Assembly (NCBI GenBank): GCA_016707705.1
Contig: JADJHD010000004.1
Span: forward strand, 24,960-88,959
Origin: Bacteroidales bacterium
GTDB lineage: Bacteria; Bacteroidota; Bacteroidia; Bacteroidales; UBA4417
Reading direction: 5' to 3'
Length of the DNA stretch: 64,000 nucleotides
Part shown: positions 1,813 to 58,146 of the stretch, piece by piece
Layout: each line of letters starts with the position of its first letter
Position numbering within the stretch: position 1 is the stretch's first letter
Translations under genes and position numbers: made by a program
The notes under the pieces: generated by a model
Told to the model about the DNA's origin: nothing
Database searches by the model: none
The model's input: only the letters and a program-made list of their open reading frames with translations

Positions 1813-2985
1813 ATGGCCAATCCTTGCAACCTGCCGTTTCAGTTGTCCCGGGTCTCATACCGACAATTTCTGCTGATAGCAATCCTTTCCTTATTCGGAT
1901 TATCCGTCTCTGCTCAGGAAATCAAGGCAAAGAAGCAATATCCATGCATTTCATTCAATTATGCTTATGGGAATATTATTCCTACTACCGATTTTGTGAA
2001 GGGGGATAATCTTGTTGGCCATTCACTCGATCACTACCGCTCCATCTCGATAAAGGCTCTCTGGCAAAACCCCGGTTACCGCGATTGGCAGAAGATCTAT
2101 CGTGCTCCTTACTACGGTGCTGGCTTTACAATGAGTGAATTCTTCGATCAGGAAGAGATAGGACGGCCTGTTTCGGTGTATGGGATACTTGGAATCCCCG
2201 TAGTTCGCTGGAAGCATTTCGATATCTATTCCGAATTTCAGTATGGGATGGCCTTCAATTGGGAACACTACGATTCGGTCAGCAATCCCAAGAATCTTGT
2301 AATCGGCGGCGGAATGACCGTTCACCTTAATATCGGTTTCAATGCTTTTTACCATCTTGGCAAGCACCTCGACCTGGGTGCAGGAATCAGCTTCATACAC
2401 TTCTCCAACGGTGGTTTTGAACGTCCCAACCGGGGATTCAATATCTATGCTCCCTCTGCTGAACTGAAATACAGAATCGGAGGCCGCCCTGACCTGAAAT
2501 CAGTCAGACTGAAAGGCAGAATCAATCGTTCCAATGATCTCTATTTTATGCTTGGGTATGGCGACCACCAGCTGAATGAGCATGAACTCGACAGCAATTA
2601 TTTCGCTATCATTGGTTTGAGTGCCATATATTTCAATCAGCTATCCAATGCTTTCCGTCTGGGTGCCGGTACCGATCTCAATTACTGGATGGGTTTAACT
2701 GCTCTACCCGATGGCAGAATGGGCCCCCGCAATTTCAAAAATCTGACTGTTGGACTGATCCTGCAACCTGAATTCGCTATTGGAAAACTTACCCTTGTTG
2801 GCGGCGTTGGCATTTATGCAGTTCACCTAAACTACGGTAATTTCAAGCAAACCTACCAGCGGCTTGGGGTACGTTATGATTTCTACCATAATTACTCCAT
2901 CGGTGTTAATGTGCGTGCCATCAATTTTATGCTTGCTGAGTTTATGGAGTTTAATCTTGGGTACAGGCTACGAAGGTTGAAGTGA
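1813..2985 (+). CDS. outer-membrane acyloxyacyl hydrolase / PagL-like lipid A deacylase family protein (tentative)
   Basis: 390 aa, signal peptide ending SVSAQE, beta-barrel-like alternating pattern, motif ISFIHFSNGGFERPNRGFN resembling the HxSNG...PN motif of PagL-family proteins (recalled, not searched). Confidence 0.45.
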   Translation: MANPCNLPFQLSRVSYRQFLLIAILSLFGLSVSAQEIKAKKQYPCISFNYAYGNIIPTTDFVKGDNLVGHSLDHYRSISIKALWQNPGYRDWQKIYRAPYYGAGFTMSEFFDQEEIGRPVSVYGILGIPVVRWKHFDIYSEFQYGMAFNWEHYDSVSNPKNLVIGGGMTVHLNIGFNAFYHLGKHLDLGAGISFIHFSNGGFERPNRGFNIYAPSAELKYRIGGRPDLKSVRLKGRINRSNDLYFMLGYGDHQLNEHELDSNYFAIIGLSAIYFNQLSNAFRLGAGTDLNYWMGLTALPDGRMGPRNFKNLTVGLILQPEFAIGKLTLVGGVGIYAVHLNYGNFKQTYQRLGVRYDFYHNYSIGVNVRAINFMLAEFMEFNLGYRLRRLK

Positions 2986-3199
2986 TTGCGGGTTTCGGAT
3001 TGCGGGTTTCGGAATTTTGAATATGGGTGTTTGCCCGCTGGTGGTCGGATAAAAAGGACTGAATTGTTCAATGACCAAATCCGTGTAGATCTGTGTTTCC
3101 AGTGTCATCAGTGTTCTATATTGTGCTACTTGCAAAATTTAGAACCACTAAGGCACTAAGGGCACTAAGAGACACTAAGAACTAAACTGCTAACAACTA
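2984..3199. repeat. intergenic modular repeat locus L1 (tandem 14-mers, degenerate hairpin, GCTACTTGCAA block, ACTAAG stutter)
   Basis: GATTGCGGGTTTCG x2 at 2984-3011; TTGCCCGCTGGTGGTCGGAT 3031-3050; GTGTCATCAGTGTTCTA...GCTACTTGCAA...TAGAAC 3102-3145; ACTAAG/ACTAAC words 3147-3199. Confidence 0.8.
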
Positions 3200-4573
3200 A
3201 AGCAGCTGCGTGATCATGCCGGGAATAAGTCCGAGGGCGAACTGGGCGAGGCAGAGGAGAACCAGGAAGACTTTCAGCCAGGGATTAAGGCCGATAACAA
3301 TTTGTCCGCCCTCCTTGAAGAACATGGAAATAACAGGCTTCAAATAGAACGCCAGACTGATTGCAGAACCAAGAATAGCAATGATAACCAGGTAAAGATG
3401 TCCGCTTTCCAGCGTTGAGGAAAACAAGGCAAATTTCCCCATAAAACCTGCCAAAGGCGGAATACCTGTCAATGAAAGCATGGAAATAGCCAGCGTAATG
3501 GCAATCAGTGGATTCCTTCTTGCCAGTCCCTGATAATGCTCCATCTTGTCATCATAGATAAAATCCTTTACCAGCATCAGCACTACAAAAGCGGCATAGG
3601 TAGAAAGAGAATAGGCTGCCAGATAAAGCAGTACTGCACCCATTGAAGTTGCATTTGACGCTACGAGAGCCATCAGCAGGTAACCAGTATGTGCAATACC
3701 CGAATAAGCCAGGAGTCGCTTGAAAGTGCGTTGATACAATGCAGTGACATTAGCCAGAATAATGGTGGCAGCTGAAAGAATCACCACTGTGGTGCTCCAG
3801 AAGGGCTGTATTGCCATGAAACTATGGTTGAAGAGGCGGAATATAGCTGCAACGCCAGCCACCTTTACAACAGTCGCCATGAAGGAGGTGATAACTGTGG
3901 GAGCACCCTGATAAACATCCGGAACCCAGAAATGAAAAGGAACGGCTGCAACCTTGAACACTAATCCGATAAGCGTGAGCAGCATTCCTGCATAGAACAT
4001 CTTCGGCAAATCGTTCGCATGAGAAGTGGCATAAAGTCCGATGGCTTCCAGGTTAAAGGAGCCGGCGGAACCATAAAGCAGAGCAATTCCGAAAAGTAGA
4101 AATCCTGAAGCGAAGGAGCCCATCAGGAAGTATTTCATGGATGCTTCCTTGGCGAGGTTATCAAATTTCTTGCTTCCAGCCAGAACGTACATCGAAATGG
4201 AAAGTGTTTCAATCCCGATAAACAGCATGGAAAGATTGGAGAAGGAGGTCATCAGCGTTCCCCCGATAAGGGAGAAGATCATCAGGATATAGACATCATC
4301 CAGCGGTTTTACAACATTTCTGAAGTAATGTCCGGCAATAAGCACCACCAGCATGGCCATTACAATGAGAATGGTGTTGAAGGCAACTGCATAATTATCA
4401 ACGAACATCATTTCGTTGTAATAATGCCTGTAGGTGTTCCAATCGTTGATATTCAGTGCCAGTGCAACTGCCATTCCGGTCACCAGCACGGGAACTATCC
4501 ATTTATATTTATGCCAGGCTCCGATCAGCATGGTGATGATCGCTAGTACCGACAATGCAATTAATGTGGCCAT
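3197..4573 (-). CDS. nuoN: NADH-quinone oxidoreductase subunit N
   Basis: 458-aa polytopic antiporter-like protein, last gene of nuoA-N order, ND2/NuoN-like sequence. Confidence 0.9.
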   Translation of the reverse strand: MATLIALSVLAIITMLIGAWHKYKWIVPVLVTGMAVALALNINDWNTYRHYYNEMMFVDNYAVAFNTILIVMAMLVVLIAGHYFRNVVKPLDDVYILMIFSLIGGTLMTSFSNLSMLFIGIETLSISMYVLAGSKKFDNLAKEASMKYFLMGSFASGFLLFGIALLYGSAGSFNLEAIGLYATSHANDLPKMFYAGMLLTLIGLVFKVAAVPFHFWVPDVYQGAPTVITSFMATVVKVAGVAAIFRLFNHSFMAIQPFWSTTVVILSAATIILANVTALYQRTFKRLLAYSGIAHTGYLLMALVASNATSMGAVLLYLAAYSLSTYAAFVVLMLVKDFIYDDKMEHYQGLARRNPLIAITLAISMLSLTGIPPLAGFMGKFALFSSTLESGHLYLVIIAILGSAISLAFYLKPVISMFFKEGGQIVIGLNPWLKVFLVLLCLAQFALGLIPGMITQLL

Positions 4574-4595
4574 GTTTGTTCAGTTTCTTGTTTTC

Positions 4596-6041
4596 CTAAC
4601 GCCCGATTAGTTGCAGCAGGGCAGGTTCAGCTATATGCAGAAAGGTGGACGGATATATTCCAATCCAGAAAATCATGATTACAAGCGGCGATAAAATGAG
4701 TATCTCCCTTGTACTTAAATCCTTGAATTCGGCAAGGTTATCGCCCGGTTTACCGAACATTACCCTTTGATTCATCCAGAGCAGGTAAATTGCCGTGAAT
4801 ATGATGGTAAGTCCTGCAATCACTGCTACCCACGCCTTATATTCGAAAAGTCCCAGCAAAAGCAGGAACTCTCCTACAAATCCATTAGTGAGGGGAAGTG
4901 CTACAGTGCCAAGGATGATTATCATAAAGAAAGCCGCCATAATGGGTGCCTTGGTGGCAATTCCACCCATATCGGAGATATTCTTGGATTTCAGCCTTAC
5001 ATGCAGCATTTCAATCATAGCGAAGAGACCAACCACATTGATACCATGCGATATCATCTGAAGTGTGCCTCCCTGTAATCCCTGAATATTCAATGTTAGA
5101 ACCCCGGCAGTAATGAGTCCGACGTGGGCAATGGAGGCATAGGCCACCATTTTCTTCAGATTATCCTGCTTTATGGCAATAATGGAGGCATAAACAATAC
5201 CTGTAACGCTCAGTAATATGGCAAGCCAGCCCCATTCGGCCAGTGCATCCGGACAAAGCGGAATAAGAAGTCGCAGAATGCCATAGATTCCCATTTTCAG
5301 CATGATACCGGCAAGCAGCATGCTACCCTGATAAGGTGCAATGTCGTAGGTATCGGGTTGCCAGGTATGGAAAGGAAATACCGGAATCTTAATGGCAAAT
5401 GCCAGGAAGAAGGCTGCAAATACCCAGGTCTGCATTTCATTGCTCATGCTCACCGCATAGAGTGCATCAAAACTGAAGGAGTGCGGCGCAGGAGTAGCAA
5501 GGTAGAGCATAATCAGGGCCACCAGCATGAAAAGGCTGCCCAGCAGGGTGTATACAAAGAATTTAAAGGTGATTTTAATCTTGTCGGTGCTGCCCCAGAG
5601 TCCGCAGATAAAGTAAATCGGAATCAGTGCAAGCTCCCAGGAAATGTAGAACATCAGTCCGTCGCGGGCAGTAAACACTCCGAGCAGCGCAAGTTCCATC
5701 AGCAGTATCAGTGCATAGAAAACATGCGGACGCCGGTAGGTTTTCCTGAAGGCTGAAAGCACGATCAGCGGACTCAGGAAGGTGGTGAGCAGCAGCAGAA
5801 GCAGGCTGATTCCATCCAGTCCGAAACTGAAGGTTATTCCCATTTCTCCCAGCAAGATGTACTTAAAACCTGAGTTATACAATGAGGGAGTGGCCGCAAT
5901 GAATACTGACAACAGGAAACTCAGGATGGAGGTAGCCAGTGCAATCCACTTTGCCCTTCCGGGTTGCGGACTTACCAGGCTCAGCACAGCCCCGAGAAAA
6001 GTAACAATAAGGATAACAATCAATATCATGCGACAAATCAA
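4596..6041 (-). CDS. nuoM: NADH-quinone oxidoreductase subunit M
   Basis: 481-aa antiporter-like membrane protein (ND4-like), between nuoL and nuoN. Confidence 0.9.
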   Translation of the reverse strand: MICRMILIVILIVTFLGAVLSLVSPQPGRAKWIALATSILSFLLSVFIAATPSLYNSGFKYILLGEMGITFSFGLDGISLLLLLLTTFLSPLIVLSAFRKTYRRPHVFYALILLMELALLGVFTARDGLMFYISWELALIPIYFICGLWGSTDKIKITFKFFVYTLLGSLFMLVALIMLYLATPAPHSFSFDALYAVSMSNEMQTWVFAAFFLAFAIKIPVFPFHTWQPDTYDIAPYQGSMLLAGIMLKMGIYGILRLLIPLCPDALAEWGWLAILLSVTGIVYASIIAIKQDNLKKMVAYASIAHVGLITAGVLTLNIQGLQGGTLQMISHGINVVGLFAMIEMLHVRLKSKNISDMGGIATKAPIMAAFFMIIILGTVALPLTNGFVGEFLLLLGLFEYKAWVAVIAGLTIIFTAIYLLWMNQRVMFGKPGDNLAEFKDLSTREILILSPLVIMIFWIGIYPSTFLHIAEPALLQLIGR

Positions 6042-7924
6042 ATTACCAGGTTAAAGAAGAGAATCAGAATAATGCCGATTACCATCATGAAGAGATAGAA
6101 GCCGGTATTTCCGGTTTGCAGCAGCCGGAAGGTGTTCCCGGCCCGGATTACCGTATTCCCAATTCCATTGACAAAGCCATCTATAATTTTGACTTCCAGT
6201 ATCTTGTGGAACTGTGTTGAAAGCCAGAGTCCGGGTTTTACAAAAAGGGAATCATAAATCTCATCGATGTAGTACTTTCTGCTCAATACTCCCGCAAATC
6301 CTGTTGGTTCTGTCATTTCGGCTTCGGTAGACTGTTTCCTGCCAAACTTGTTATAAGCCAGGTAGATGGCTGTTAAAGTAAGCGCGATGGTTACAATCAG
6401 CAGCATCCATTCCGGAGCATGCACCTCTTCGGTCACTTGCGGGTGGAAACTGAAAACAGGTGCAAGGAATTTCTCAAGCTGCATTTCTCCTCCAAACAGA
6501 TGCGGAATGCCAATAAAGCCTCCAAATGCCGCCAGCACTGCAAGTATCATCAGGGGAACTGTCATCACCCTTGGCGATTCATGCAGATGTTCGTCCTGTT
6601 CCTTTGTCCCCCTGAATTTACCGGTGAAGGTGAGAAAGAACAACCGGAACATATAGAATGCGGTGAGCAGAGCACCGGCAAGAGCCAGTCCCCACATCAG
6701 CGGACTGAATTCAAATACTTTCAGCAGGATCTCATCCTTTGAAAAGAATCCTGATAGGGGTGGAATTCCGGCAATGGCAAGGGTTGCAATCAGAAAAGTG
6801 AAATAGGTGATTTTCATTTTTCCCGATAGCCCACCCATCTTTCGGATATCCTGTTCGCCGCCCATGGCATGGATAACACTTCCGGCACCGAGGAACAGCA
6901 GGGCCTTGAAGAATGCATGGGTTGTGAGGTGGAATACTGCACCTGTGAATGAACCTACTCCCAGCGCGAGGAACATATACCCCAGTTGGCTGATGGTTGA
7001 ATAGGCAAGGACTTTCTTGATATCGTTCTGGTATAATGCTATGCTTGCCGCAAGCAGGGCAGTTGCCAGTCCCGTGATTGCTATCAGCTGCAAACTGAAT
7101 GGAGCCAGCACATAAAGCACATTGCATCTGGCTACCATATAAACGCCTGCTGTAACCATGGTTGCAGCATGAATAAGCGCTGAAACCGGCGTTGGACCTG
7201 CCATGGCATCAGGCAACCATGTGAATAGGGGAATCTGGGCGCTTTTACCAACAGCACCAATAAAAAGGAAGAGTGTAATTGCAACGATTGTTGGATCACC
7301 GATGGAGAATGCTTTTGCCTTTTCGAAAACAACTGCATATTCAAGGCTACCGAAAGCTTTGAATATCATGAACATTCCAATGAGAAAGCCCAGGTCGCCT
7401 ATGCGGTTCATGATGAAAGCCTTCTTGGCGGCATTGTTGTTTTCATGGTCCCTGAACCAGAATCCGATGAGCAGATAGGAGCAGAGTCCCACACCTTCCC
7501 AGCCAATAAACATCACCACGAAATTGGAAGCCATTACCAGCACCAGCATTGAGAACATAAAGAGGTTCATGTAGCTGAAGAACCGGGTTTGTCCTTCATC
7601 ATGCTTCATGTATCCCATTGAATAGAGGTGAATCAGGAAACCGACACCTGTGACAACGAGCAGCATCAGGCTACTTAATGGATCAACAGAGAAGGAGAAG
7701 CCAATATTAAGGGTTCCGACCTTCATCCACTCAAAAAGCAGGGTGTTCAATGAACCGCCGGTGGAGCGGATTTCAAAAAATACAATCAGGGAAAGTAAAA
7801 ACGACAGCAGGACGGCCATACTGGCTATGCCTCCTGCCAATTGTCCGCGTATCCTCCTGAAGCCCAATCCTGTCACCAGGAAGCCCAGAAGGGGGAAGAA
7901 CGGTATTAGCCAGAATGCTTGCAT
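6038..7924 (-). CDS. nuoL: NADH-quinone oxidoreductase subunit L
   Basis: ND5-like antiporter subunit with long C-terminal extension; likely start MQAFWLIPFFPLLGFL at 7924 (ORF extends to 7984); 4-nt overlap with nuoM. Confidence 0.9.
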   Translation of the reverse strand: MQAFWLIPFFPLLGFLVTGLGFRRIRGQLAGGIASMAVLLSFLLSLIVFFEIRSTGGSLNTLLFEWMKVGTLNIGFSFSVDPLSSLMLLVVTGVGFLIHLYSMGYMKHDEGQTRFFSYMNLFMFSMLVLVMASNFVVMFIGWEGVGLCSYLLIGFWFRDHENNNAAKKAFIMNRIGDLGFLIGMFMIFKAFGSLEYAVVFEKAKAFSIGDPTIVAITLFLFIGAVGKSAQIPLFTWLPDAMAGPTPVSALIHAATMVTAGVYMVARCNVLYVLAPFSLQLIAITGLATALLAASIALYQNDIKKVLAYSTISQLGYMFLALGVGSFTGAVFHLTTHAFFKALLFLGAGSVIHAMGGEQDIRKMGGLSGKMKITYFTFLIATLAIAGIPPLSGFFSKDEILLKVFEFSPLMWGLALAGALLTAFYMFRLFFLTFTGKFRGTKEQDEHLHESPRVMTVPLMILAVLAAFGGFIGIPHLFGGEMQLEKFLAPVFSFHPQVTEEVHAPEWMLLIVTIALTLTAIYLAYNKFGRKQSTEAEMTEPTGFAGVLSRKYYIDEIYDSLFVKPGLWLSTQFHKILEVKIIDGFVNGIGNTVIRAGNTFRLLQTGNTGFYLFMMVIGIILILFFNLVI

Positions 7925-8004
7925 CAATGTGTAAAAATGTTTTATCTGCGTTTGATCTGTATTATCTCCTGAATTCTTTACCAATCATGACAAATGAATG
8001 CCAA

Positions 8005-8313: not shown

Positions 8314-8370
8314 GATTATGTGTTTGTATTTTGAAAGCTTTAGAGGATTATAAAGTATATTGTATTGCAA

Positions 8371-8407
8371 TTCAAGAATCCAGAAGTCAGGATTCAGAAG
8401 TCAGAAT
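8371..8407. repeat. 3' inverted stutter arm of the four-helix-bundle cassette (CAGAAT word family)
   Basis: TTCAAGAATCCAGAAGTCAGGATTCAGAAGTCAGAAT; imperfect inverted partner at 8753-8786; encodes last codons and stop of the ORF. Confidence 0.65.
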
Positions 8408-8752
8408 GGCTTGACTATATGCTTCTAATAATTTGCTCACTTCTTCTAACTTTTGTTTCAGCCCAGTATTATCGCCATATTTCAAATCTTGAGCCAGTAT
8501 CAGATAATACCTGCATTCTTCAAGGGATCCTTGTGCTATATTCATAAATCGCAATTTGTCATTCTTCCCTTTCTTCTTGAATCCCTCAGCAATATTAGCA
8601 GGAACAGATATAATTGCTCTTCGCAATTGAGAAGTTAATCCAAACATTTCATTCTTTGGGAATGTACCACTATATTCATAGGTCAATAAGACCAACTGAT
8701 GTGACTTCTGCCATACAAATAAATCTAAAAAACTTTTTGCAGGTTTATTCAT
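8387..8752 (-). CDS. four-helix-bundle protein (23S rRNA intervening-sequence protein family, Avd-like)
   Basis: 121 aa from MNKPAKSFLDLFVWQKSHQL...; motifs LTSQLRRAIISVPANIAEG and GSLEECRYYLILAQDL typical of PF05635/TIGR02436 (recalled); lies between nuoJ and nuoK, co-oriented. Confidence 0.85.
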   Translation of the reverse strand: MNKPAKSFLDLFVWQKSHQLVLLTYEYSGTFPKNEMFGLTSQLRRAIISVPANIAEGFKKKGKNDKLRFMNIAQGSLEECRYYLILAQDLKYGDNTGLKQKLEEVSKLLEAYSQAILTSES

Positions 8753-8786
8753 ATTCTGGCTTCTTGGATTCTGAATTCTGAATTCA
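8753..8786. repeat. 5' inverted stutter arm of the four-helix-bundle cassette
   Basis: Plus strand ATTCTGGCTTCTTGGATTCTGAATTCTGAATTC; sense strand GAATTCAGAATTCAGAATCCAAGAAGCCAGAAT abutting the ATG; terminal AGAAGYCAGAAT matches the other arm 11/12. Confidence 0.65.
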
Positions 8787-8832
8787 TTTTGCTTTAACAT
8801 TACTCATAATTGAGAGAAATTTAAACAGTCTC

Positions 8833-16919: not shown

Positions 16920-18168
16920 TTAAATGGCAGGTATAAGTTTCAGGATTTTTCCGGTTGCACCTTTTCGCTGTTCAACAAAAGCCTTGCTTATGGATGAAGT
17001 TGAGGACAGAAATCCGGGATCATCACTGAATTTCCGGAGGATTCGCTCAAGCTCATTATAATTATGAATACTGTAAGCTCCCTTAGCTTCAACAAGATCT
17101 ACGGCTTCCTGAAACTTATGGTAAATGGGGCCGAAAATGACCGGCATCCCATATACTGCTGGCTCAAGAATATTATGAATCCCCGCGCCGAAGCCTCCTC
17201 CAATATATGCTACTTGTCCGTACCTGTATACCTGTGAAAGAATTCCAACAGCATCGATTATCAGAATATCAGCATTTCCGGCCTTTTCTAGACTTCCTTC
17301 CGAATACCTGCAAGCCTTCATCCCGGAAGTGTTTATCAGGTTCCGGATTGCATCATCATGTATTTCATGGGGAACAAGTATCAGTTTGAACTTGCCAGGG
17401 TTTTCACTCACAAAGCGAATCAGCAATTTCTCATCTTCAGGCCAGCTGCTGCCGGCAACCAAAACCAACTTCTCCTTGCAGAATGCCTGAACCATAGGGA
17501 TTTCCCTCTTCTCGGATGCAATGGCTACAACCCTGTCGAAACGAGTGTCCCCGCTTATTGTTGCATTCGTTATACCAACAAATTCAAGCAGTTCAAGTGA
17601 GTTTTCGTTCTGAACGAAGATATGTGTAAATCCCTTGAGTATATTCCTTGTCCAGTCGCCATACCATTTGAAGAAGTGCTGGTCGGCCCTGAAAATTGCA
17701 GATACGAGGTAATGTGGGATGCCTCTTTCCTGTAAAAGGTTCAGATAATTGAACCAGAATTCATACTTCAAAAATTACTGCATCAGGTTTTACCAGATCG
17801 ATGAAGGTCCGGGCATTGGCAGGAGTATCGAGGGGCATGTAGCAGACCAGATCTGCAACATTGTAGTTTTTTCGGTGTTCATATCCTGAGGGACTGAAGA
17901 AAGTTAGGATAATGAAGTGATCCGGATGTTCCTTTTTCCAGGCTTCGATGAGGGGACGACCTTGTTCAAATTCCCCGAGGGAGGCGCAATGAAACCATAT
18001 GGTCTTTTTCCCGCCCTGTTTACCCCGGCGCAATTCAAGTTCCCTGCGGATAAACTCAATGATGCCTTTTCTCCCATCTCTCCAGAGTTGGGCTTTCGGA
18101 TTGAAAAGCGCTGCTGTACGGATCAGCAAGCCGTAAACATGAATCCCGAAAGAATAAAAAAGGTTCAT
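16920..18168 (-). pseudogene. waaA: 3-deoxy-D-manno-octulosonic acid (Kdo) transferase, interrupted by a 1-nt frameshift at a homopolymer
   Basis: N-terminal ORF 17761-18168 (WFHCASLGEFEQGRPLIEAWK...) and C-terminal ORF 16920-17771 (KYEFWFNYL...GGSFG-like region) are consecutive parts of KdtA/WaaA in offset frames; switch at A5 run 17770-17774. Confidence 0.8.
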
Positions 18169-21340: not shown

Positions 21341-22366
21341 ATGAAAAAAATATTGGTTACCGGGGGCACCGGTTATATCGGATCACATACTGTTGTTGAA
21401 TTGCAAAGAAAGGGGTATGAGGTTCTGATTGTGGATAATCTCTCAAATTCGAGGCTGGATGTACTTGATAATATTGAAACTATCTCAGGCATAAGACCTG
21501 CTTTCGAGCAACTGGACCTTGCAGATGGAAAACTTACCGCAGAATTCTTCCAAAGGAATCCCAGTCTGGATGGAGTTATTCATTTTGCTGCCTTCAAGGC
21601 TGTTGGACAATCAGTGGCAGATCCTCTGATGTACTACAGGAACAATCTTTATTCCCTAGTAAATGTGTTGCAGGGAATGAAGGATAATAATATTCAGAAC
21701 CTTGTATTTTCTTCCTCCTGCACGGTTTATGGACAGCCAGAGCAATTGCCCGTGAATGAAAAGGCTCCTATTCAGAAAGCCTGGTCGCCTTACGGCAATA
21801 CGAAGCAGATGAGTGAGGAAATTATAGAGTTTACTGTGAAAAGCTGCGATGTAAAAGCTATTGCCCTACGGTATTTTAATCCCATAGGCGCACATGAATC
21901 AGCATTGATTGGTGAATTGCCACTTGGGACACCTAATAACCTTATGCCTTTCGTTACCCAGACTGCCATTGGAATCAGGGAATGCCTCTCCGTTTTTGGC
22001 GGTGATTACGATACACCTGATGGCACTGCCGTCCGCGATTATATTCATGTGGTTGATATCGCCCAGGCACATGTTGTTGCTGTTGAGCGTATGCTTGGTG
22101 ACAAGGGAAAATCAAATTTTGAGATCTTCAACCTTGGAACCGGCAATGGCTTATCTGTGCTTGAGGTGATCAATTCATTTGAAAAGACGAGTGGACAAAA
22201 GCTGAATTACAAGATCGTTGACAGAAGATCAGGTGATGTTGAAAAGGTTTGGGCTGATACTACTTTCGCCAACCAGGAACTCGGATGGAAAGCCCTCAAG
22301 GGATTGGATGAAATGACTCTTTCTGCCTGGAAATGGGAGTTGAGATTGGCGGAAATAAAGAAGTAA
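21341..22366 (+). CDS. galE: UDP-glucose 4-epimerase
   Basis: GGTGYIGSH Rossmann motif, YGNTK catalytic motif, RYFNPIGAH. Confidence 0.88.
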   Translation: MKKILVTGGTGYIGSHTVVELQRKGYEVLIVDNLSNSRLDVLDNIETISGIRPAFEQLDLADGKLTAEFFQRNPSLDGVIHFAAFKAVGQSVADPLMYYRNNLYSLVNVLQGMKDNNIQNLVFSSSCTVYGQPEQLPVNEKAPIQKAWSPYGNTKQMSEEIIEFTVKSCDVKAIALRYFNPIGAHESALIGELPLGTPNNLMPFVTQTAIGIRECLSVFGGDYDTPDGTAVRDYIHVVDIAQAHVVAVERMLGDKGKSNFEIFNLGTGNGLSVLEVINSFEKTSGQKLNYKIVDRRSGDVEKVWADTTFANQELGWKALKGLDEMTLSAWKWELRLAEIKK

Positions 22367-22714
22367 TTTGGAGATGTGGGGATGCGCAGCGTAGCGGAGT
22401 CCGCCGGCTGGCGGATGAGGATGTGAGGATGCGCAGCGTAGCGGAGTCCGCCGGCTGGCGGATGGAGATGTGGGGATGCGCGCGGCGGCTGGCGGATGGG
22501 GATGTGAGGGAATCTAGAATAGATGAATCAGTGAAAATCAGTTGAATCTGCGTCATCTGTGTTCTATTTTTGGCTACTTGCACAATCAACCTCTGAACCC
22601 CAAATTCCAAAAATTCAAAACTAACAACTAAACTACTAACAACTAAACTACTAACAACTAAACTACTAACAACTATCAACCCCCAATAGACCAAGGAAAT
22701 AACAAACAAGCAAT
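22367..22714. repeat. intergenic modular repeat locus L3 (47-bp units x2.6, GCTACTTGCA block, 15-mer x3.7)
   Basis: Units start 22381, 22428, 22475 with hairpins TCCGCCGGCTGGCGGA at 22400 and 22447; M2 block 22550-22587; CTAACAACTAAACTA x3 perfect (22621-22665) plus partial copy to 22675. Confidence 0.88.
22541..22572 (+). promoter_or_regulatory. candidate promoter inside repeat L3 (GTTG -33-like, TATTTTTG -7 box)
   Basis: TATTTTTG at 22565-22572 fits TAnnTTTG; TTG 20 nt upstream; 143 nt upstream of rfbB ATG. Confidence 0.3.
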
Positions 22715-28820: not shown

Positions 28821-29495
28821 GTTCGGGGTTCGAGATTCAGGGTTCAAAAGGGTAGATTCCTGCAAGTAGGAGTTGTTAGTTGGGTTTTGTGTTGATTGGA
28901 AGACTTGGGTGAACTCGGAAATTTGTGCCTTGGGTGTTGTTAGTTGTTAGTGGCTCAGGGGTTGAGATGTGGCACTTTCCCTTTTGTCTTTTGTCCGCCA
29001 GCTGGCGGATTGTCTTTTCTCTTTATCCTTTTGTCTTTAGCCTTTTATCTTTTGTCTTTTGCCTTTTGTCTTTGTCCTTTTGTCTTTTGTCTTTTTCCGC
29101 CATCTAGCGGATTGCCTTTTCTCTTTATCCTTTTGTCTTTTGTCTTTTGCCTTTTATCTTTTGTCTTTGTCCTTTTGTCTTTAGCCTTTTATCTTTTGTC
29201 TTTGTCCTTTTGTCTTTAGCCTTTTATCTTTTGTCTTTGTCCTTTTGTCTTTAGCCTTTTGTCTTTTGTCTTTGTCCTTAGAGTTGATTGTTTGCACTCG
29301 GTTTGTCTAACGATGGTCAGGCAATGGTCATTCGATAGTCATTCAATAGTTATGCAAAATTCACACAATTGTTATATGAAGAATCAGCGAAAATCAATCT
29401 GAAGCCAGCGAATCCGCGTAAATCGGCGAGAAACCTTTCGTCTTTTGCACTTTTTACCATTTCCTTCTGTCTTTTGTCATTTGCCTTTTTCTCAA
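28821..29495. repeat. intergenic modular repeat locus L4 (largest; ~300-bp CTTTTGTC stutter with hairpins 102 bp apart, plus M4/M5 blocks)
   Basis: Hairpins TCCGCCAGCTGGCGGA 28994-29009 and TCCGCCATCTAGCGGA 29096-29111; pyrimidine stutter 28977-29278; GTCAGGCAATGGTCATTCG 29316-29334; ATCAGCGAAAATC...GCGTAAATCGGCGAGAAACC 29383-29435. Confidence 0.88.
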
Positions 29496-29569: not shown

Positions 29570-29595
29570 AAAAAAAAAGCCGGACGAGCCGGCTT
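29570..29595 (-). terminator. rho-independent terminator of the BI-1 family gene
   Basis: Stem AAGCCGG/CCGGCTT (7 bp, loop 5 nt) followed on the minus strand by a U9 run (A9 at 29570-29578 on plus strand); 22 nt after stop. Confidence 0.7.
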
Positions 29596-36871: not shown

Positions 36872-36977
36872 GTAAAGAGTTTCCTGTATACTTCTTCTAT
36901 GAAATTAAAGCTGCTTGTTGCATCAACTCACTCACTGACTTAGCTTATAAATTGAATCTGAACATATTAATACCTGA

Positions 36978-38144
36978 ATTCTGAAACGTCGCATCGCCAT
37001 ACTCGGTTCTACAGGCTCTATCGGGACACAAGCCCTGGAGGTTATTCGTGAACACCCAAAGGAACTGGATGTAGAAGTCCTGACCGCTCATTCAAATGCT
37101 GCCCTGTTGATCAGGCAGGCGCTTGAATTCAAGCCCAATGTTGTAGTGATTGGTAAGGAGAGCATGTATGAAAGGGTAAAGGAAGCTCTTGACCCTTTCG
37201 ATATCAAGGTGTATGCAGGTGCAGAAGCCATTGAGCAGGTTGTTGAAATGGGAACCGTTGATGTGGTTCTGGTTGCCCTGGTTGGGTTCTCAGGACTGAA
37301 GCCTACACTGAGTGCCATAGAAGCCGGAAAGCCTATTGCTCTTGCCAACAAGGAAACTATGGTGGTTGCAGGTGAGCTGGTTACCAAAAGAGCGAAGGAG
37401 AAGGGAGTTAATATTTATCCGGTGGATTCAGAGCATTCTGCCATTTTTCAATGCCTTGCCGGCGAATTCCACAATCCTGTTGAGAAAATAATACTTACAG
37501 CTTCAGGTGGTCCCTTCCGCGGAATGGACAAAACCGCACTTGCGAATGTATCCCGTGAGCAGGCATTGAATCACCCAAACTGGAAGATGGGCTGCAAGGT
37601 CACAATTGACTCTGCAACCATGATGAACAAAGGCCTTGAGGTTATTGAAGCCAAATGGCTTTTCGGACTGGATCCATCCCGAATAGAGGTAATAGTTCAT
37701 CCCCAGAGTATTATTCATTCATTGGTGCAATTTGCCGATGGTTCATTGAAGGCACAAATGGGCTTGCCCGATATGCGGCTTCCCATTCAGTATGCACTGA
37801 CATATCCTGACAGGCTTGTATCTTCCTTTCCGAGGTTTAATTTCACTGATTATCCTCAGCTTACGTTTCAAAAACCTGACCCTGAGAGTTTCAGGTGTCT
37901 GGCTCTTGCCTACCTTGCCATGGAAAAAGGAGGGAATATCCCTTGCATCATGAATGCTGCCGATGAAATTGCAGTTCATGCTTTCCTGCGCGATGAAATA
38001 AGTTTCCTTCAAATACCCGAGCTGATTGAACAATGCATGAACGAAGCAGTTTTTATTAAGAATCCCACTTATGAAAACCTGCTGGAATCGGATTTAGCCG
38101 CCCGAAATCTGGCTGAAGAGATCGTTCGTAAAATGAAAGCTTGA
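36978..38144 (+). CDS. dxr: 1-deoxy-D-xylulose 5-phosphate reductoisomerase (non-canonical start codon)
   Basis: In-frame N-terminal extension of ORF 37107-38144 encodes (I)LKRRIAILGSTGSIGTQALEV, the conserved NADPH-binding start of Dxr; TGA at 36975-36977 closes the frame. Confidence 0.85.
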   Translation: MLKRRIAILGSTGSIGTQALEVIREHPKELDVEVLTAHSNAALLIRQALEFKPNVVVIGKESMYERVKEALDPFDIKVYAGAEAIEQVVEMGTVDVVLVALVGFSGLKPTLSAIEAGKPIALANKETMVVAGELVTKRAKEKGVNIYPVDSEHSAIFQCLAGEFHNPVEKIILTASGGPFRGMDKTALANVSREQALNHPNWKMGCKVTIDSATMMNKGLEVIEAKWLFGLDPSRIEVIVHPQSIIHSLVQFADGSLKAQMGLPDMRLPIQYALTYPDRLVSSFPRFNFTDYPQLTFQKPDPESFRCLALAYLAMEKGGNIPCIMNAADEIAVHAFLRDEISFLQIPELIEQCMNEAVFIKNPTYENLLESDLAARNLAEEIVRKMKA

Positions 38145-51742: not shown

Positions 51743-51904
51743 CCCCGCAGCTTGCTGCGAGATATTCTTATTTTAGTTGTTTGGTGAATACAGAATTCAG
51801 GAGTCAGAATTTGAAAATTTGGTTGTTATTCTGTCCGCCTGGGCGGATGGCTTCTGTCCGCCAGCCGGCGGATGAATTCTGATACCCCGCTGCTTGCGGC
51901 GGGG
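51743..51904. repeat. intergenic modular repeat locus L5 (two hairpins between inverted CAGAATTC words, two extra palindromes)
   Basis: CGCAGC-TT-GCTGCG 51746-51759; CAGAATTCAGGAGTCAGAAT 51791-51810; TCCGCCTGGGCGGA 51834-51847; TCCGCCAGCCGGCGGA 51857-51872; TGAATTCTGA 51873-51882; CCCCGC-N8-GCGGGG 51885-51904. Confidence 0.75.
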
Positions 51905-52045
51905 TCCTTCATTGTTTGCTTGTGGTAAAGTCTAAAGCCGGAATCATGGATGAATCCGACTATTGTTGAAAGATGTATGATGGGAAAAGCCTGATAAAGC
52001 CCTATTTTTGTGAACAGACATATAGAGAACTGTCCAGCCATTCCT

Positions 52046-54769: not shown

Positions 54770-54820
54770 TTCGTGAAAGCAAAGAGCAGGAAGAATGGCG
54801 CAAGGAAGGACAGAAGTAGA

Positions 54821-55225
54821 AGGGGTAAAAAAGGAAAGACAAAAGGAGAAAGACAAAAGGAAAAAGACAAAAGACAAAAGGGGGAAAGGATAAAGGGAAA
54901 AATATTGAAAGATAAAAGGCTAAAGTGGGGAGTTGGTGGTGAAGGGGTAGTCAGACAATGGTCATGCGTTGGTTCTGCAGCATCTCTGCGAAAATCCTTT
55001 GTTTTATCTGCGTAAATCTGCGAGAAACCCTTTTGCTACTTGCAAGAATTAGAAAACAGATCCGCATATGGCTGTCAAATTCTCCAATTTTCAAATTTTC
55101 ATCCGCCAGCCGGCGGACTCCGCTTCGCTGCGCATCCTCATCCGCCAGCCGGCGGACTCCGCTTCGCTGCGCATCCTCATCCGCCAGCCGGCGGACTCCG
55201 CTTCGCTACGCATCCTCACATCTTC
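54821..55225. repeat. intergenic modular repeat locus L6 (purine stutter, M4, M5, M2, 39-bp array)
   Basis: AAAGACAAAAGG-type stutter 54826-54925; GTCAGACAATGGTCATGCG 54950-54968; 54982-55030 M5; GCTACTTGCAAGAATTAGAAAACAGATCCGC 55035-55065. Confidence 0.88.
55101..55217. repeat. tandem array, 3 x 39 bp (ATCCGCCAGCCGGCGGACTCCGCTTCGCTGCGCATCCTC)
   Basis: Units start 55101, 55140, 55179; units 1-2 identical, unit 3 one substitution. Confidence 0.95.
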
Positions 55226-56150
55226 TTAATGTGAATCTATCCCATTCAGCATCAAAATACTATGCCTGAGTGTAGGGGTAATTTCAGCACAGTATTCATT
55301 CACAGCTTTCACGCTGCCGGGGAGGGTGTAAATAAGGGTTTTATCCGTGACGCCTGCAACGGCTCTTGAGATCAGGGCATTGGGTTTGATACTGCCGTAT
55401 TTGAAGCGGATCAGTTCCATGATTCCGGGGATTTCCTTTTGCAGCATGGGTTTTATAACATCCACGGTGAAATCTTTAGGACCGATGCCAGTGCCGCCAG
55501 TGGTAAAGATGAAATCAGCACCTGCATTTACGAATCCGGCAACCAATGATTCAAGAGCTTCCGGGTCATCCGGGATCAGGGTGTTTTTCGATGTTGTATT
55601 TCCATCCGGTTGTATCAAAGTATTCTGCAAGCAATTCACTGATTCTTGGGCCGGACTTATCCTCGTACTCACCGCGACTGGCGCGATCGCTGAGGGTAAT
55701 GACTTGAATATTAAAGACTTTTGGGGTAAAGATGAAGCTATCCCCGGCTTTGACCTTACCGTTTTTCAGGACTCTGGCAAATATTCCTTCCTTGGGCATC
55801 ACGCAGTTGCCGACCTCCTTAAAAATTGCGCATGAAGTGCCATGGCATTCCTTGCCGATCTGGGTGACTTCCAATTCTATCTCTCCAATGCTGATTCTAT
55901 CGAGGGGCTGTGTATTCCAGAGTTCAAGTCCTTCGGTGGTGATGTTCTCCGCGAACTCACCATACCTGATCTGTCTGCCTGCCTGATGTTCAAACTTTGC
56001 AATGCTTTCAACAGCCAGCAAACTCACCTGCCGGTGCCATTCACCTGAATGAGCATCGCCTTCACATCCTATTTCGGTAAGTGAGATAAATTCAACAGGC
56101 TGCTTTATTGTGCCTTTCTTCTGTGAGATATTTACGGATACTATCTTCAT
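55226..56150 (-). pseudogene. mogA: MOSC domain - MogA/MoaB molybdopterin adenylyltransferase fusion, interrupted by 1-nt frameshift at a homopolymer
   Basis: ORF 55566-56150 = MOSC plus MogA N-terminus (ITLSDRASRGEYEDKSGP); ORF 55226-55672 = rest of MogA (FTTGGTGIGPKDFT); switch at T5 run 55584-55588. Confidence 0.75.
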
Positions 56151-56760
56151 GGTTGCTTTTGTTCAGGGTTCGAAGTTAATAAAGGGAAGCTCCCTGCAAG
56201 GAGGAGTTGTTAGTTGTTGGTTGTTAGTTGTTAGTAGCGAGTGCTCGGTTTTCGATTTTCTAATTTTACCCAGTCTTCTTTCTCCGTGGCTCTCTGTGTC
56301 CGCCGCGGCGGATCAGTGCCTACGTGGTTCTTAAATATGCTACTAGCAAAAATTAGAACACAGATGACACGGATTATTAGGATTAGCACGGATCTGGTAA
56401 TTGTAAATTTCAATCCATTTTCACATTATCACATTATCACATCTCCACATCTTCACATCTCCACATCTTCACATCCCTATCCGCCAGCCGGCGGACTCCG
56501 CTTCGCTTCGCATCTCCATCCGCCAGCCGGCGGACTCCGCTTCGCTTCGCATCTCCATCCGCCAGCCGGCGGACTCCGCTTCGCTTCGCATCTCCATCCG
56601 CCAGCCGGCGGACTCCGCTTCGCTTCGCATCTCCATCCGCCAGCCGGCGGACTCCGCTTCGCTTCGCATTCTCACATACCCGCATTTTCAAATTATCAAA
56701 TTATCACATTTTCACATCTCCACATCTTCACATCCCCACTTCTCCACATCTCCACATCAT
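56151..56760. repeat. intergenic modular repeat locus L7 (TTAGT stutter, hairpin, M2, CACATC stutter, 39-bp array)
   Basis: GTTGTTAGTTGTTGGTTGTTAGTTGTTAG 56207-56236; TCCGCCGCGGCGGA 56299-56312; GCTACTAGCAAAAATTAGAACACAGATGACAC 56339-56370; CACATTATC/CACATCTCC words 56422-56477 and 56673-56758. Confidence 0.9.
56479..56673. repeat. tandem array, 5 x 39 bp (ATCCGCCAGCCGGCGGACTCCGCTTCGCTTCGCATCTCC)
   Basis: Units start 56479, 56518, 56557, 56596, 56635; first four identical, fifth diverges in its last bases. Confidence 0.95.
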
Positions 56761-57210
56761 TTATCTTGATTTAATAAACTTCACTCCCTCAACAATGTAA
56801 AAAATTGCTGAAGCAAGAAGCGACAATCCAAGCGAGATGAAGAATGTGCCTTTATAGAGTTCAGGTATTATGCTCCATTTGTTTACAAAGATACCCATGG
56901 TGATCATGATCGACATCAGAAAATAACCCTTGACATCAAAGAATCCGAAGATACAGGGCCTCTCATATTTGTTTTTAATGATTCGGTTCACATAGCGCAT
57001 GCTGACCTTGCGAAACACCAGCAGGAAAAAAGGGATAAATCCCAGCAGTCCGATGAGGTAGTTTGTCCAGTGATGAAGTGCGTGATGTTCAATCATATCG
57101 ATACCCAGCTTCAGGATGCGATAGGCAGCAAAGGACCATATGGCAGCTCCCAGAACAATCAGTACGATTTTTGGAGCACCTGGCTTGTACTTATGAGAGA
57201 GTTTAGTCAT
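56761..57210 (-). CDS. hypothetical four-helix membrane protein
   Basis: 149 aa, four hydrophobic segments; 8-nt overlap with upstream PrsW-like gene. Confidence 0.5.
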   Translation of the reverse strand: MTKLSHKYKPGAPKIVLIVLGAAIWSFAAYRILKLGIDMIEHHALHHWTNYLIGLLGFIPFFLLVFRKVSMRYVNRIIKNKYERPCIFGFFDVKGYFLMSIMITMGIFVNKWSIIPELYKGTFFISLGLSLLASAIFYIVEGVKFIKSR

Positions 57211-57904
57211 TTTGGATTGTTCCTGGAGGTGGGGGAGGTGTTTGTCGGAAAATTGATGAATCGCTATGCTGTTTCATTCGCTTGAGACCAATTCGCCACA
57301 TGTAAATGAGGAGAGGCACAAAGCAGAATATCAGTAATGGCTGTCCTGAAAGCACCAGGAAATCATAGGTCCCGTGAAAAAACCAGGGAATGGTAAGCGC
57401 TTTCCAAAGGAATTCACTTTTGCGTTCAGGATTGAATTTGGCAAGACCTAGATAATACCCCATCATCACTCCAAACAAGGTATGAGCTGGAACTGCGGTA
57501 ATAGCACGAAGAAATCCAACCTGATAGGAACCTTCAAAAACGTAGAAAATATTCTCAATGGCAGCAAAACCCAAAGAGACCGCTACAGCATAAACGATAC
57601 CGTCATATTTCTCATTGAAATTCTTGTTTCGCCAGAAAAGAAAATAAACTGTAGCGAATTTGAACAACTCCTCAGTGCCACCAGCCACAACATATCCTTC
57701 ATATGCAGCCTTTATCAGGCCACCTATTCCTCCTGCTGCTGCCATCAGTCCCCTTTCAATGATTGCTACCGGAAAAATGATAATCCCGCCTACCAGCAAT
57801 CCCCGAAGCAGCAAGCCAATCGGTTCCTTTTCATACTTATCACGGAAGTAAATGTAAGCCAGCAAAATAAATACAGGTGCCAGGGAGAGAAAGAGTAATG
57901 TCAT
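57203..57904 (-). CDS. PrsW-family intramembrane protease
   Basis: 233 aa polytopic; N-terminus LAPVFILLAYIYFRDKYEKEP and GGTEELFKF, HTLFG, HGTYDF motifs typical of PrsW family (recalled). Confidence 0.7.
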   Translation of the reverse strand: MTLLFLSLAPVFILLAYIYFRDKYEKEPIGLLLRGLLVGGIIIFPVAIIERGLMAAAGGIGGLIKAAYEGYVVAGGTEELFKFATVYFLFWRNKNFNEKYDGIVYAVAVSLGFAAIENIFYVFEGSYQVGFLRAITAVPAHTLFGVMMGYYLGLAKFNPERKSEFLWKALTIPWFFHGTYDFLVLSGQPLLIFCFVPLLIYMWRIGLKRMKQHSDSSIFRQTPPPPPGTIQND

Positions 57905-58146
57905 TTTTGCTATTGCGGATTTCTGATTTCTGGTTTCGGATTGCGGATTGCGGATTTAAAGTTGCGAATTGCTCGAATTGGTGATTTTGGATATGAGTGT
58001 TCAAGGTTTGTGGAAAGCACTTTTGTCTTTTGTCCTTTTTCCGCCAGCTGGCGGATTATCTTTTGTCTTTGTCCTTTTATCTTTTGTCTTTTGTCTTTGT
58101 CCTTTTATCTTTTGTCTTTGTCCTTTTATCTTTTGTCTTTTTAATT
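57905..58146. repeat. intergenic modular repeat locus L8 (GGATTGCGG stutter, hairpin, CTTTTGTC stutter)
   Basis: GCGGATTTCTGATTTCTGGTTTCGGATTGCGGATTGCGGATTT 57915-57957; TCCGCCAGCTGGCGGA 58040-58055; stutter 58019-58146. Confidence 0.88.

Follow-up and report, generated by a model that had tools for sequence, protein, structure and literature searches.

An intergenic repeat system and a PF05635 gene cassette at gene junctions of a Bacteroidales genome

Eight loci in a 64,000-nt stretch of a Bacteroidales genome (GTDB lineage UBA4417; GenBank assembly GCA_016707705.1, contig JADJHD010000004.1, positions 24,960 to 88,959; hereafter the window) are built from short tandem repeats, a GC-rich palindrome, and longer dispersed modules, and one of them, between nuoJ and nuoK, is a cassette encoding a protein of family PF05635, the 23S rRNA intervening-sequence or four-helix-bundle family (hereafter IVP). 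We consider it probable, though with reservations set out below, that the loci represent a fast-turnover intergenic repeat system of one Bacteroidia lineage, driven by insertion together with slippage. An initial annotation, made from the letters of the window, had recognized the eight loci as one modular family; it missed that one of them is a PF05635 cassette of the 23S intervening-sequence (IVS) type, and that the arms of this cassette are a cross-phylum feature. Our view of the source genome is this single window, and the relatives compared with it are mostly short metagenome contigs from independent Logan, ENA, JGI, and NCBI assemblies; L-numbers denote loci of relatives or homologues.

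The cassette, about 490 nt long (8343-8832, reverse strand), lies between the nuoJ stop codon (8833) and the homology-supported ATG of nuoK (8313). Its open reading frame (ORF), of 121-137 aa, matches Pfam PF05635 with an E-value of 3.9e-34 and a score of 117.5 bits against a cut-off of 33.8. On the upstream side, an arm of octamer stutter made of GAATTCAGAATTCAGAATCCAAGAAGCCAGAAT units (8753-8800, reverse strand) runs into the ATG at 8752; on the downstream side, an arm that is the inverted complement of the first (8371-8410, reverse strand) encodes the C-terminus of the ORF, ..AILTSES-stop. The nuoJ stop and the nuoK start are 519 nt apart in the window, compared with 27 nt in L171 (94.6% nucleotide identity), 25 nt in L175, and 18 nt in L172-174, and L170 carries the same cassette at the same point; the NuoJ proteins of these relatives are 99% (L170 and L171), 94% (L175), and 87% (L172-174) identical to that of the window. 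The filled site reads TAA-GAGACTG...CCTC-TAA-AGCTTTC and the empty sites TAA-TG(A/C)WTTYA, so that the cassette begins directly after the nuoJ stop codon, and it is co-oriented with the host operon. In the one filled/empty comparison to hand (the right end of the L089 copy described next is cut by a contig end), TAA stands at both edges of the cassette, possibly as a 3-nt target duplication.

A further copy of the cassette, 93.8% identical over 500 nt, begins immediately behind the TAA stop of an ABC ATPase gene in L089, an ENA contig, and the likeness takes in about 50 nt ahead of the 5' arm and about 20 nt beyond the 3' arm. L085 has an ORF 89% identical to that of the window at the nucleotide level, above the 66-72% identity of the housekeeping genes of the two genomes, which suggests either horizontal movement or unusual constraint. 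The arms of the window cassette pair around the ORF in both the minimum free energy (MFE) and the centroid predicted RNA fold. Their complementarity was measured by a local complementarity score, as RNAduplex energies did not separate real flanks (-62 kcal/mol) from controls (-66 kcal/mol) because long looped duplexes dominate; the window cassette scored 16.5, above every positional control (95th percentile 10.5, maximum 14.0). On comparison of these sites, the nuoJ-nuoK unit is a true insertion. The initial annotation had treated the tracts at 8371-8407 and 8753-8786 as one more junction filler and had stated that the repeats never lie inside a conserved ORF body. These tracts are the cassette arms, and the 3' arm codes for the last residues of the protein; the remaining loci are intergenic according to ORF calls and Pfam.

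The same architecture recurs around PF05635 genes of other phyla. The window IVP shares 68-72% identity with homologues named from Scytonema, Nostoc, Leptolyngbyaceae, Desulfobacterales, and Verrucomicrobiae, and its close homologues were collected from 80 metagenome loci ranging from 37 to 62% GC. In most of these loci, tandem CAGAATTC, CAGGAGTC, or CAGAAGTC units lead into the ATG, and their inverted complement downstream encodes a C-terminal ..ILNSDS-stop. At least two octamer units on each side, inverted, flank 52 of 82 PF05635 genes versus 3 of 135 control positions, and the median local complementarity of the flanks is 16.5 versus 7.5 in controls, with 61 of 81 genes above the control 95th percentile. 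Seven distant paralogues detected with a hidden Markov model use other 7-8-nt dialects (e.g., GTGAACG, GTTAGT/ACTAAT, TTAAGT, TTCGTAA) and still carry inverted pairs, their complementarity exceeding the control 95th percentile in six of seven. Neighboring genes are mostly co-oriented with the PF05635 gene (upstream 52/59, downstream 52/65). Nostoc punctiforme PCC 73102 and Trichormus variabilis ATCC 29413 have octamer inverted arms of the same kind on conjugative plasmids, around genes annotated "four helix bundle protein" (L256, NC_010632.1 15234-15599; L257, NC_007412.1 60378-60743), and these genes are wedged 16-41 nt from co-directional neighbors; viral contigs contained no close IVP relative. 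Judged from these flanks, inverted stutter arms are a general, cross-phylum feature of PF05635 genes. In two unrelated high-GC contigs (L098 and L119), a cassette occupies what seems to be one junction, following a gene whose product ends ..FGEYRP; in L098 the next gene, which comes directly after the cassette, begins MKRPIKVLIAKAGLDGHERGA and is apparently that of the B12-binding subunit of methylmalonyl-CoA mutase. Here there is a hint that certain operon junctions are used recurrently or by inheritance.

Avd is an accessory protein of diversity-generating retroelements (DGRs) and is reported to work with the DGR reverse transcriptase. The homology of PF05635 to Avd (PMC10053308) can be counted for an account in which the arrays are binding sites of a protein that is specific to the lineage and binds DNA or RNA, perhaps the PF05635 protein itself, and are kept by selection or spread by that protein. 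The co-occurrence of octamer arms with the PF05635 ORF across phyla, the shift of dialect with protein subfamily, and the composition of module M5 (ATCNGCG repeats spaced by about 10 nt) would fit such an account as well. Most stutter loci of the window, however, have no PF05635 gene beside them, and we give it only a small chance. A DGR as such was ruled out, as the cassette has nuoJ and nuoK for neighbors and there is no reverse-transcriptase domain in the window.

Comparison of orthologous junctions reveals rapid turnover beyond nuoJ-nuoK. The moaC-prsW junction measures 242 nt in the window, 178 nt in the close relatives L081 and L082 (PrsW 97% identical), and 83 and 35 nt in the distant relatives L083 and L084 (PrsW 73% identical). 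For the junction between a hypothetical gene and the MOSC gene (hyp-MOSC), the lengths are 610 nt (window), 260 nt (L082), 62 nt (L083), and 30 nt (L084). In L081 and L082, the hyp-MOSC junction differs in module content and has no array of 39-nt units, and module M2 is diverged in L081 and absent in L082; about 160 nt adjoining the MOSC start (ACTAAC stutter, M6, and M7) are 89% identical in L082, conserved like coding DNA. In the 73%-PrsW relatives, both junctions are repeat-free (30-83 nt). At other, non-orthologous junctions, L084 and L085 (the latter in the same metagenome-assembled genome (MAG) as L083, GCA_963853285.1) hold the CTTTTGTC, GGATTTSGG, CACATCTCC, AAATTKTC, and TGACTAG dialects, and the other junctions of the 73%-PrsW relatives also hold GC hairpins and M5. 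A 1.6-kb spacer in L085 (7860-8800) contains three copies of a foldback unit of about 120 nt, resembling miniature inverted-repeat transposable elements (MITEs), which alternate with stutters of the CACATCTCC and AAATTKTC types and with several further GC hairpins.

Stutter occupies 116 nt per 10 kb in the window, 140 in the close relatives, 255 in the 73%-PrsW relatives, and 19 in unrelated MoaC control loci; the filters for stutter density and for hairpins within stutter were set loose, as stricter versions missed the window's own degenerate tracts. The MoaC protein of the window finds its best match among species-representative genomes at 71% identity (Carboxylicivirga, Prolixibacteraceae, and Bacteroidales MAGs), and the window modules do not occur in 1.26 Mb of these MoaC-matched distant relatives (at most 71% identity). 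A strict M5 pattern was found only in the window and L084 in 1.9 Mb searched. The concern that the tracts might be assembly artifacts is countered by the same kinds of tract in the independent assemblies of relatives.

Within the window, the relationship among the eight loci proposed by the initial annotation is borne out. When all 23 intergenic regions were compared with the window by blastn (word size 9), non-local matches fell only among the eight loci, with none in coding DNA. M2 is 86-88% identical between loci over 32-35 nt (E 2e-5 to 6e-5) and the end of M5 92% over 24 nt; a newly named module, M6, is 89% identical between 28826-28882 and 56164-56216, for which blastn returned 89% over 36 nt (28847-28882 vs. 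56181-56216). The suggested colinearity of M4 and M5 at loci 4 and 6 is supported by the M5 end and by M4, 17 of 19 positions of which are identical by eye, and was detected only partly by BLAST. Loci 3 and 7 are colinear on the sense strand, running from the stop codon through a GGAGATGTG stutter, the M1 minisatellite, an ATCYGYG stutter, M2, and an ACTAAC stutter to the start codon (M1 being the palindrome described below). Locus 7 has two shared modules in addition, M7 (CCACGGAG...ACAGAGAG) and M6, and a third, weaker instance of this order is seen at locus 1. Together the loci amount to about 2.7 kb, which is, as had been estimated, a large share (roughly one third) of the approximately 8 kb of non-coding DNA under the ORF model.

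Tandem Repeats Finder (TRF) reported arrays of period 7-8 at every stutter tract named in the initial annotation and none in coding DNA. The units are degenerate and grouped into super-units of 14-35 nt. Longer units form minisatellites: 39-nt units are repeated 3.1 times at 55099-55218 and 5.2 times at 56467-56669, matching between loci at 93-97% (blastn), and 47-nt units, each a 39-nt unit plus one extra 8-nt stutter unit, 2.3 times at 22372-22481. A clustered regularly interspaced short palindromic repeat (CRISPR) array was ruled out, as units of 39 and 47 nt follow one another without unique spacers and differ little along the whole array (92-98% matches). ORFs spanning the arrays (56241-56774, 22296-22709, and 28944-29219) were rejected as coding because Pfam gives them no credible match, a 47-nt unit is not divisible by three, and close relatives lack the arrays.

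The initial annotation had itself named plain local slippage, without element biology, as an alternative. Each junction would then have grown low-complexity DNA independently and in place. Unit numbers of stutters and minisatellites do vary between loci and strains, and the relation of the 47-nt to the 39-nt unit is in line with slippage. As the sole explanation, slippage is contradicted, and we find it scarcely credible: the non-repetitive modules M2, M4-M5, M6, and M7 and whole module orders are common to distant junctions; dialects and M5 recur at non-orthologous junctions of relatives whose orthologous junctions are empty; and the nuoJ-nuoK unit arrived with both arms in a 27-nt spacer that held no stutter. 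Slippage alone is insufficient for these reasons, to which the presence/absence variation of junctions and the gain and loss of M1 may be added; it is likely the mechanism by which arrays grow once seeded.

For the M1 palindrome, TCCGCC-N4-GGCGGA, a regular-expression search of the window returned exactly 13 perfect copies, all at the starts first annotated, where a first-order Markov model predicts 0.01. Short-loop copies at 51834 and 56299 bring the count to 15 in 64 kb, and the degenerate copies placed at 29096 (TCCGCCATCTAGCGGA) and 3031 were found as well. The loop gives each copy an orientation, AGCC and GGCT being mutually reverse-complementary, and an AGCT loop yields a perfect 16-nt palindrome. 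M1 is always embedded in stutter arrays, singly or in head-to-tail arrays of uniform loop orientation, the only head-to-head pair being that of locus 5; it lies within CTTTTGTC arrays at 28994, 29096, and 58040, and within the octamer arms of L085, L089, and L170. Its presence differs between near-identical cassettes: in the 3' arm L089 has TCCGCCAGCCGGCGGA where the window has AATCC, and ATCTGCCAGCCGGCGGA in the 5' arm of L170 corresponds to one stutter unit of the window. In L085, M1 occurs in the IVP 5' arm, and the variants TCCGTC-GGCT-GACGGA and TCCGTC-AATC-GACGGA occur elsewhere, each with one stem pair altered on both sides; the stem is otherwise invariant. An analogous palindrome, TCCCGAT-RRCT-ATCGGGA, takes the same position within the octamer arrays of L090, L091, and L101, which belong to another lineage. 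The stutter dialects, which in the initial annotation looked as if they might have grown from pieces of the hairpin, adjoin different hairpins in relatives. M1 folds as an isolated hairpin of about -11 kcal/mol (z -3.4 to -4.2) with the surrounding stutter unpaired, and neighboring copies in arrays can pair. The 80 matches to M1 in viral contigs were dismissed as chance, being single hits in high-GC contigs (median GC 0.65), none within stutter.

These properties invite comparison with repetitive extragenic palindromes (REPs), arranged in bacterial interspersed mosaic elements (BIMEs) or as REP doublets forming hairpins (REPINs); M1 would then be a REP spread by a REP-associated tyrosine transposase (RAYT) encoded elsewhere in the genome. 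M1 is indeed short, GC-rich, extragenic, dense, and variable in presence between strains. At 16 nt, however, it is below typical REP length, the inverted doublets that define REPINs (PMC3116915) are seen at locus 5 only, the window encodes no Y1-transposase domain, and constant residence within stutter is not a feature of REPs; we see only a slim chance for such a system. Of the initial proposal of a mobile or recombination-prone family similar to REP/BIME elements, the first part is thus supported by presence/absence and copy-number variation and by the nuoJ-nuoK insertion; membership in REP/BIME is not.

The loci are also arranged consistently with respect to transcription. At all five co-directional junctions, G/A- or G/T-rich tracts follow the stop codon, and the tracts a short way ahead of the start codon are A/C-rich and G-poor (ACTAAC, AATCCGC). 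M1 with a T-rich stutter (58040, 28993, and 29096) resembles a terminator when read antisense to the flanking genes, and only then. Bacteroidetes mRNAs do not use Shine-Dalgarno sequences and favor unstructured A-rich leaders. A selected, transcript-level role may therefore be considered, in which stutters would be unstructured leaders or spacers, M1 a processing, stabilizing, or antisense-terminating signal, and the cassette arms an RNase III stem, the repeats persisting because they tune operon expression. Beyond the polarity, this reading can draw on the isolation of the M1 hairpin amid unpaired stutter, on the antisense-only likeness to terminators, on the pairing of the cassette arms in both predicted folds, and on the IVS of Coxiella, in which complementary termini close a stem around an S23p/PF05635 ORF and are cut by RNase III (PMC4990558).

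An RNA-level role is compatible with the polarity and is not required by the data. Junction length and modules differ between strains at 97-99% protein identity, and such strong variation argues against tight constraint on junction sequences; other relatives with the same gene order have repeat-free junctions of 18-83 nt; M2 is missing from the orthologous junction in L082; and loci 1 and 6, at convergent junctions where no leader is needed, have these modules as well. M2 and M4-M5 fold no better than shuffled sequences. Rfam gave no match at the gathering threshold anywhere in the window, which contains no rRNA, and at E<=1 the sole hit in three locus regions was asX2 (21.5 bits against a gathering score of 70), in keeping with the first impression that the repeats belong to no recognized named family. 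M2 was set aside as a Bacteroidetes promoter, an exact TAnnTTTG box occurring in one of its four copies and M2 being dispensable in L082. Selected punctuation as the reason for these repeats is, on this evidence, unlikely.

We therefore return to turnover by insertion and slippage, for which four layers may be distinguished. The first would be the strand-asymmetric arrays of degenerate 7-8-nt units in a few dialects, changing size through slipped-strand mispairing and unequal exchange; the second, M1, the GC palindrome that sits in the arrays, gained or lost between near-identical strains, and amplified with a neighboring stutter unit into the 39- or 47-nt minisatellites. Longer dispersed modules (M2, M4-M5, M6, and M7), seemingly travelling with the arrays as composite blocks, would form the third, and at least one coding unit, the PF05635 cassette between its inverted octamer-stutter arms, the fourth. 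New junctions would be seeded when a cassette or composite block inserts through a trans-acting mechanism and would afterwards be remodelled by slippage and recombination; loci that lack an ORF would be MITE-like derivatives or relatives of cassettes. If only those orientations survive that neither terminate nor occlude the host transcript, this would explain the consistent polarity.

Two sites have a form that such derivatives might take. An internally deleted PF05635 cassette upstream of moeA in L083 (7085-7320, reverse strand) keeps its arms with the ORF reduced to its first ~22 and last ~25 nt, and locus 5 has the layout of an ORF-less cassette, with 5'-arm units, two M1 copies, and 3'-arm units. 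A broader proposal, which we offer tentatively and hold to be rather doubtful, is that PF05635 genes are the coding members of pan-bacterial intercistronic "foldback" cassettes whose arm dialect tracks the protein subfamily, with the 23S IVS as an rRNA-resident special case. ORF-less derivatives, shed arms, and lodged palindromes would then seed the heptamer- and octamer-rich intergenic DNA of some Bacteroidota and Cyanobacteria, and the protein would act on its own arms, as RNA or DNA, for spread or maintenance.

Several observations weigh against turnover by insertion and slippage as set out here. A search of the other seven loci by nhmmer, with a DNA profile of the IVP gene, detected no decayed IVP ORF, which rules out dead cassettes as the nature of every locus, and the stutters of these seven, locus 5 excepted, are not arranged as complementary arms; the derivation of the non-cassette loci from cassettes is thus drawn by analogy only. 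No mobilizing enzyme is found among the window ORFs tested, Pfam detecting no transposase, RAYT, Y1-transposase, integrase, or reverse-transcriptase domain, and we know of no DNA-processing activity of PF05635. The right end of the cassette and any target duplication rest on a single filled/empty comparison. M1 "insertions" swap out 5-13 nt and none is clean, which leaves their direction and mechanism unreadable. Stutter in IVP-bearing metagenome loci, away from the cassette, amounts to 42 nt per 10 kb, only about twofold enriched, and L172, L173, and L175 have none in 28 kb, although these sequences are mostly packed nuo operon and carry little weight either way.

The detailed composition of the other seven loci is as follows, on the forward strand unless stated otherwise. 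Locus 1 opens with a GATTGCGGGTTTCG stutter (2984-3018; TRF) that matches 57912-57954, followed by a degenerate M1-like palindrome of no assigned strand (3031-3050; a weak feature read directly), an ATCCGTG-type stutter (3079-3101), M2 (3102-3146; blastn), and an ACTAAG/ACTAAC stutter (3146-3199; TRF, blastn). Locus 3 begins with the GGAGATGTG stutter and 47-nt minisatellite (22372-22510; TRF, regular expression, blastn), in which M1 copies with a GGCT loop start at 22400 and 22447 and precede a truncated third copy. An ATCNGYG stutter (22527-22549) then leads to M2 (22550-22587; blastn), which includes the exact TAnnTTTG box, TATTTTTG, at 22563-22570 (a promoter by resemblance only), and an ACTAAC stutter with a 15-nt super-unit repeated 3.7 times (22609-22682) ends about 30 nt before the rfbB ATG.

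Locus 4 comprises M6 (28826-28882) with a GTTAGT stutter (together 28826-28953), which on the sense (reverse) strand reads ACTAAC...M6 upstream of fabD; a CTTTTGTC array (28977-29281; TRF, regular expression, blastn) with a 35-nt super-unit repeated 7.5 times and M1 embedded at 28994 and 29096; M4 (29316-29334) and M5 (29382-29435); and a second CTTTTGTC-type tract (29436-29495). A canonical intrinsic terminator, with a 7-bp GC-rich stem and T7, lies at 29577-29595 on the reverse strand, about 20 nt after the stop of a Bax1-I family gene, so that locus 4 is between two separate transcription units. Locus 5 (51743-51905), the ORF-less mini-cassette, has 5'-arm-like CAGAATTCAGGAGTCAGAAT units (51791-51810), M1 at 51834 and 51857, and 3'-arm-like GAATTCTGA (51874-51882), bracketed by a second type of GC hairpin (CCCCGCNGCTTGCNGCG and CCCCGCNGCTTGCNGCGNGG; 51743-51761 and 51885-51904). 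Locus 6 starts with a GACAAAAG stutter (54824-54925; TRF, blastn), the complement of CTTTTGTC, and continues with M4 (54950-54968), M5 (54984-55029), an M2 core (55031-55065), and its 39-nt minisatellite, in which M1 has an AGCC loop (55099-55218; TRF, regular expression).

At locus 7, the reverse (sense) strand carries an ACTAAC stutter then M6 (56164-56245) directly upstream of the MOSC start (56150), M7 with the short-loop M1 (56275-56312, M1 at 56299-56312; the orthologues in L081 and L082 have an AGCT loop), and M2 (56326-56370) with an ATCCGTG stutter (56369-56398). On the forward strand, CACATCTCC and CACATTAT stutters surround the 39-nt minisatellite (56412-56761). Locus 8 consists of a GGATTKCGG stutter (57910-57972), read in the sense direction as AATCCGC and reaching to about 10 nt from the prsW ATG, and a CTTTTGTC stutter (58019-58155) with M1 embedded at 58040-58055; this stutter tract is shorter in L081 and L082.

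The window as a whole is a housekeeping region of about 44% GC, with the nuo operon, lipopolysaccharide and sugar-nucleotide genes, fabD, folE, dxr, guaB, and moa/moe genes identified by ORF calls and Pfam. Its first 2,000 nt have a GC fraction of 0.35, compared with about 0.44-0.47 elsewhere, and include a 231-aa ORF with no Pfam match. Three genes appear split or truncated relative to relatives: a Kdo transferase gene (16920-18168, reverse strand), present as two overlapping ORFs and intact at 418 aa in L172; MOSC-MogA (55226-56150, reverse strand), present as two ORFs overlapping by 107 nt and as a single 307-311-aa protein in L083 and L084; and dxr (36872-38144, forward strand), whose match begins at Pfam profile position 39. 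Either the genes are pseudogenes or the assembly contains indel errors, and with three genes apparently frameshifted the exact lengths of the window tracts need read support.

To our knowledge, no origin is accepted for the heptamer repeats that lie between genes in Cyanobacteria, Beggiatoaceae, and some Bacteroidetes, and we know of no function or mobility mechanism for the PF05635 ORFs of 23S IVS, recognized since the 1990s. The window ties the two together in one lineage: a PF05635 cassette is caught as an insertion polymorphism within an essential operon, with arms built of the same stutter units, and carrying the same palindrome, as the surrounding intergenic repeats. No open-access literature was found that links stutter/hairpin intergenic repeats with PF05635 cassettes in tandem-octamer inverted arms, and text searches of the literature with the arm and M1 sequence strings returned nothing relevant. 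Strains of Nostoc punctiforme and Trichormus (Anabaena) variabilis that have the same arms on plasmids are genetically tractable, so that mobility, processing by RNase III, and binding of the protein to its arms would be open to direct tests there. In practical terms, loci of this kind break short-read assemblies and spawn spurious ORFs, and they may serve as strain markers.

Among known systems, the loci are not members of a REP/REPIN-RAYT, CRISPR, DGR, or Rfam family. With REP, BIME, and REPIN-RAYT systems (PMC3116915) they share short GC-rich extragenic palindromes at high density, mosaic arrangement, and variation within species, and they differ in that inverted doublets are not usual, the window ORFs include no RAYT, and the palindrome is shorter and always in stutter. 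The BrickBuilt MITE of Porphyromonas gingivalis (PMC4596501), compared here by its published description, is likewise a strictly intergenic Bacteroidales element with a spacer-less minisatellite (23 nt, against 39/47 nt here), non-repetitive leader and tail modules, variable copy number, partial copies, and promoter-like segments; unlike the window loci it has defined terminal inverted repeats, no stutter dialects, and no associated gene. Considered as MITEs more generally, only the cassette and locus 5 have terminal inverted repeats, in the form of inverted stutter arms, and the other loci lack complementary ends; PF05635, the family carried by the sole coding relative, is not known to be a transposase, and no transposase is encoded in the window. 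The small dispersed repeats (SDRs) of Nostoc punctiforme are reportedly short hairpin units of 21-27 nt, typically found inside tandem heptamer arrays, with insertion polymorphism and structure-preserving variants. If so, M1 resembles them in being a hairpin embedded in heptamer-class repeats and polymorphic in presence at otherwise matching sites, and differs in its length of 16 nt, in its unrelated sequence and other phylum, and in forming head-to-tail minisatellites.

Two further systems come closer to the window as a whole. The heptamer direct repeats of Cyanobacteria, Beggiatoaceae, and some Bacteroidetes (MacGregor 2015, PMC4679880) are intergenic tandem units of the 7-nt class, often forward and just upstream of starts, with several heptamers in one spacer and absence from the orthologous spacer of close relatives, all of which is seen here. 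Long simple-sequence repeats in the sense of Mrazek (2007), as that work is summarized in PMC4679880, are tandem arrays of 5-11-nt units, mostly intergenic, that vary in copy number or presence between close relatives, and the window arrays do likewise; they differ in the absence of TAACTGA, in their degenerate units and super-units, and in the accompanying palindrome, non-repetitive modules, and linked gene cassette. The 23S IVS with an S23p ORF of Leptospira and Coxiella (PMC4990558) matches the cassette as a unit of ~430-490 nt with one PF05635 ORF and complementary termini predicted to close a stem, and in a sporadic distribution that suggests horizontal transfer, with presence/absence between relatives. 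The cassette is not a strict 23S IVS, because it lies outside rRNA, between nuo protein genes (and elsewhere other operon genes) rather than in helix 25 or 45 of 23S rRNA, and its termini are tandem 8-nt units of variable number, sometimes with an embedded palindrome. The system resembles a combination of heptamer long simple-sequence repeats, SDR-type mini-elements, a BrickBuilt-like MITE with a minisatellite, and IVS-type PF05635 cassettes, and of these it most resembles the cyanobacterial heptamer repeats with their small dispersed repeats, joined by IVS-type cassettes.

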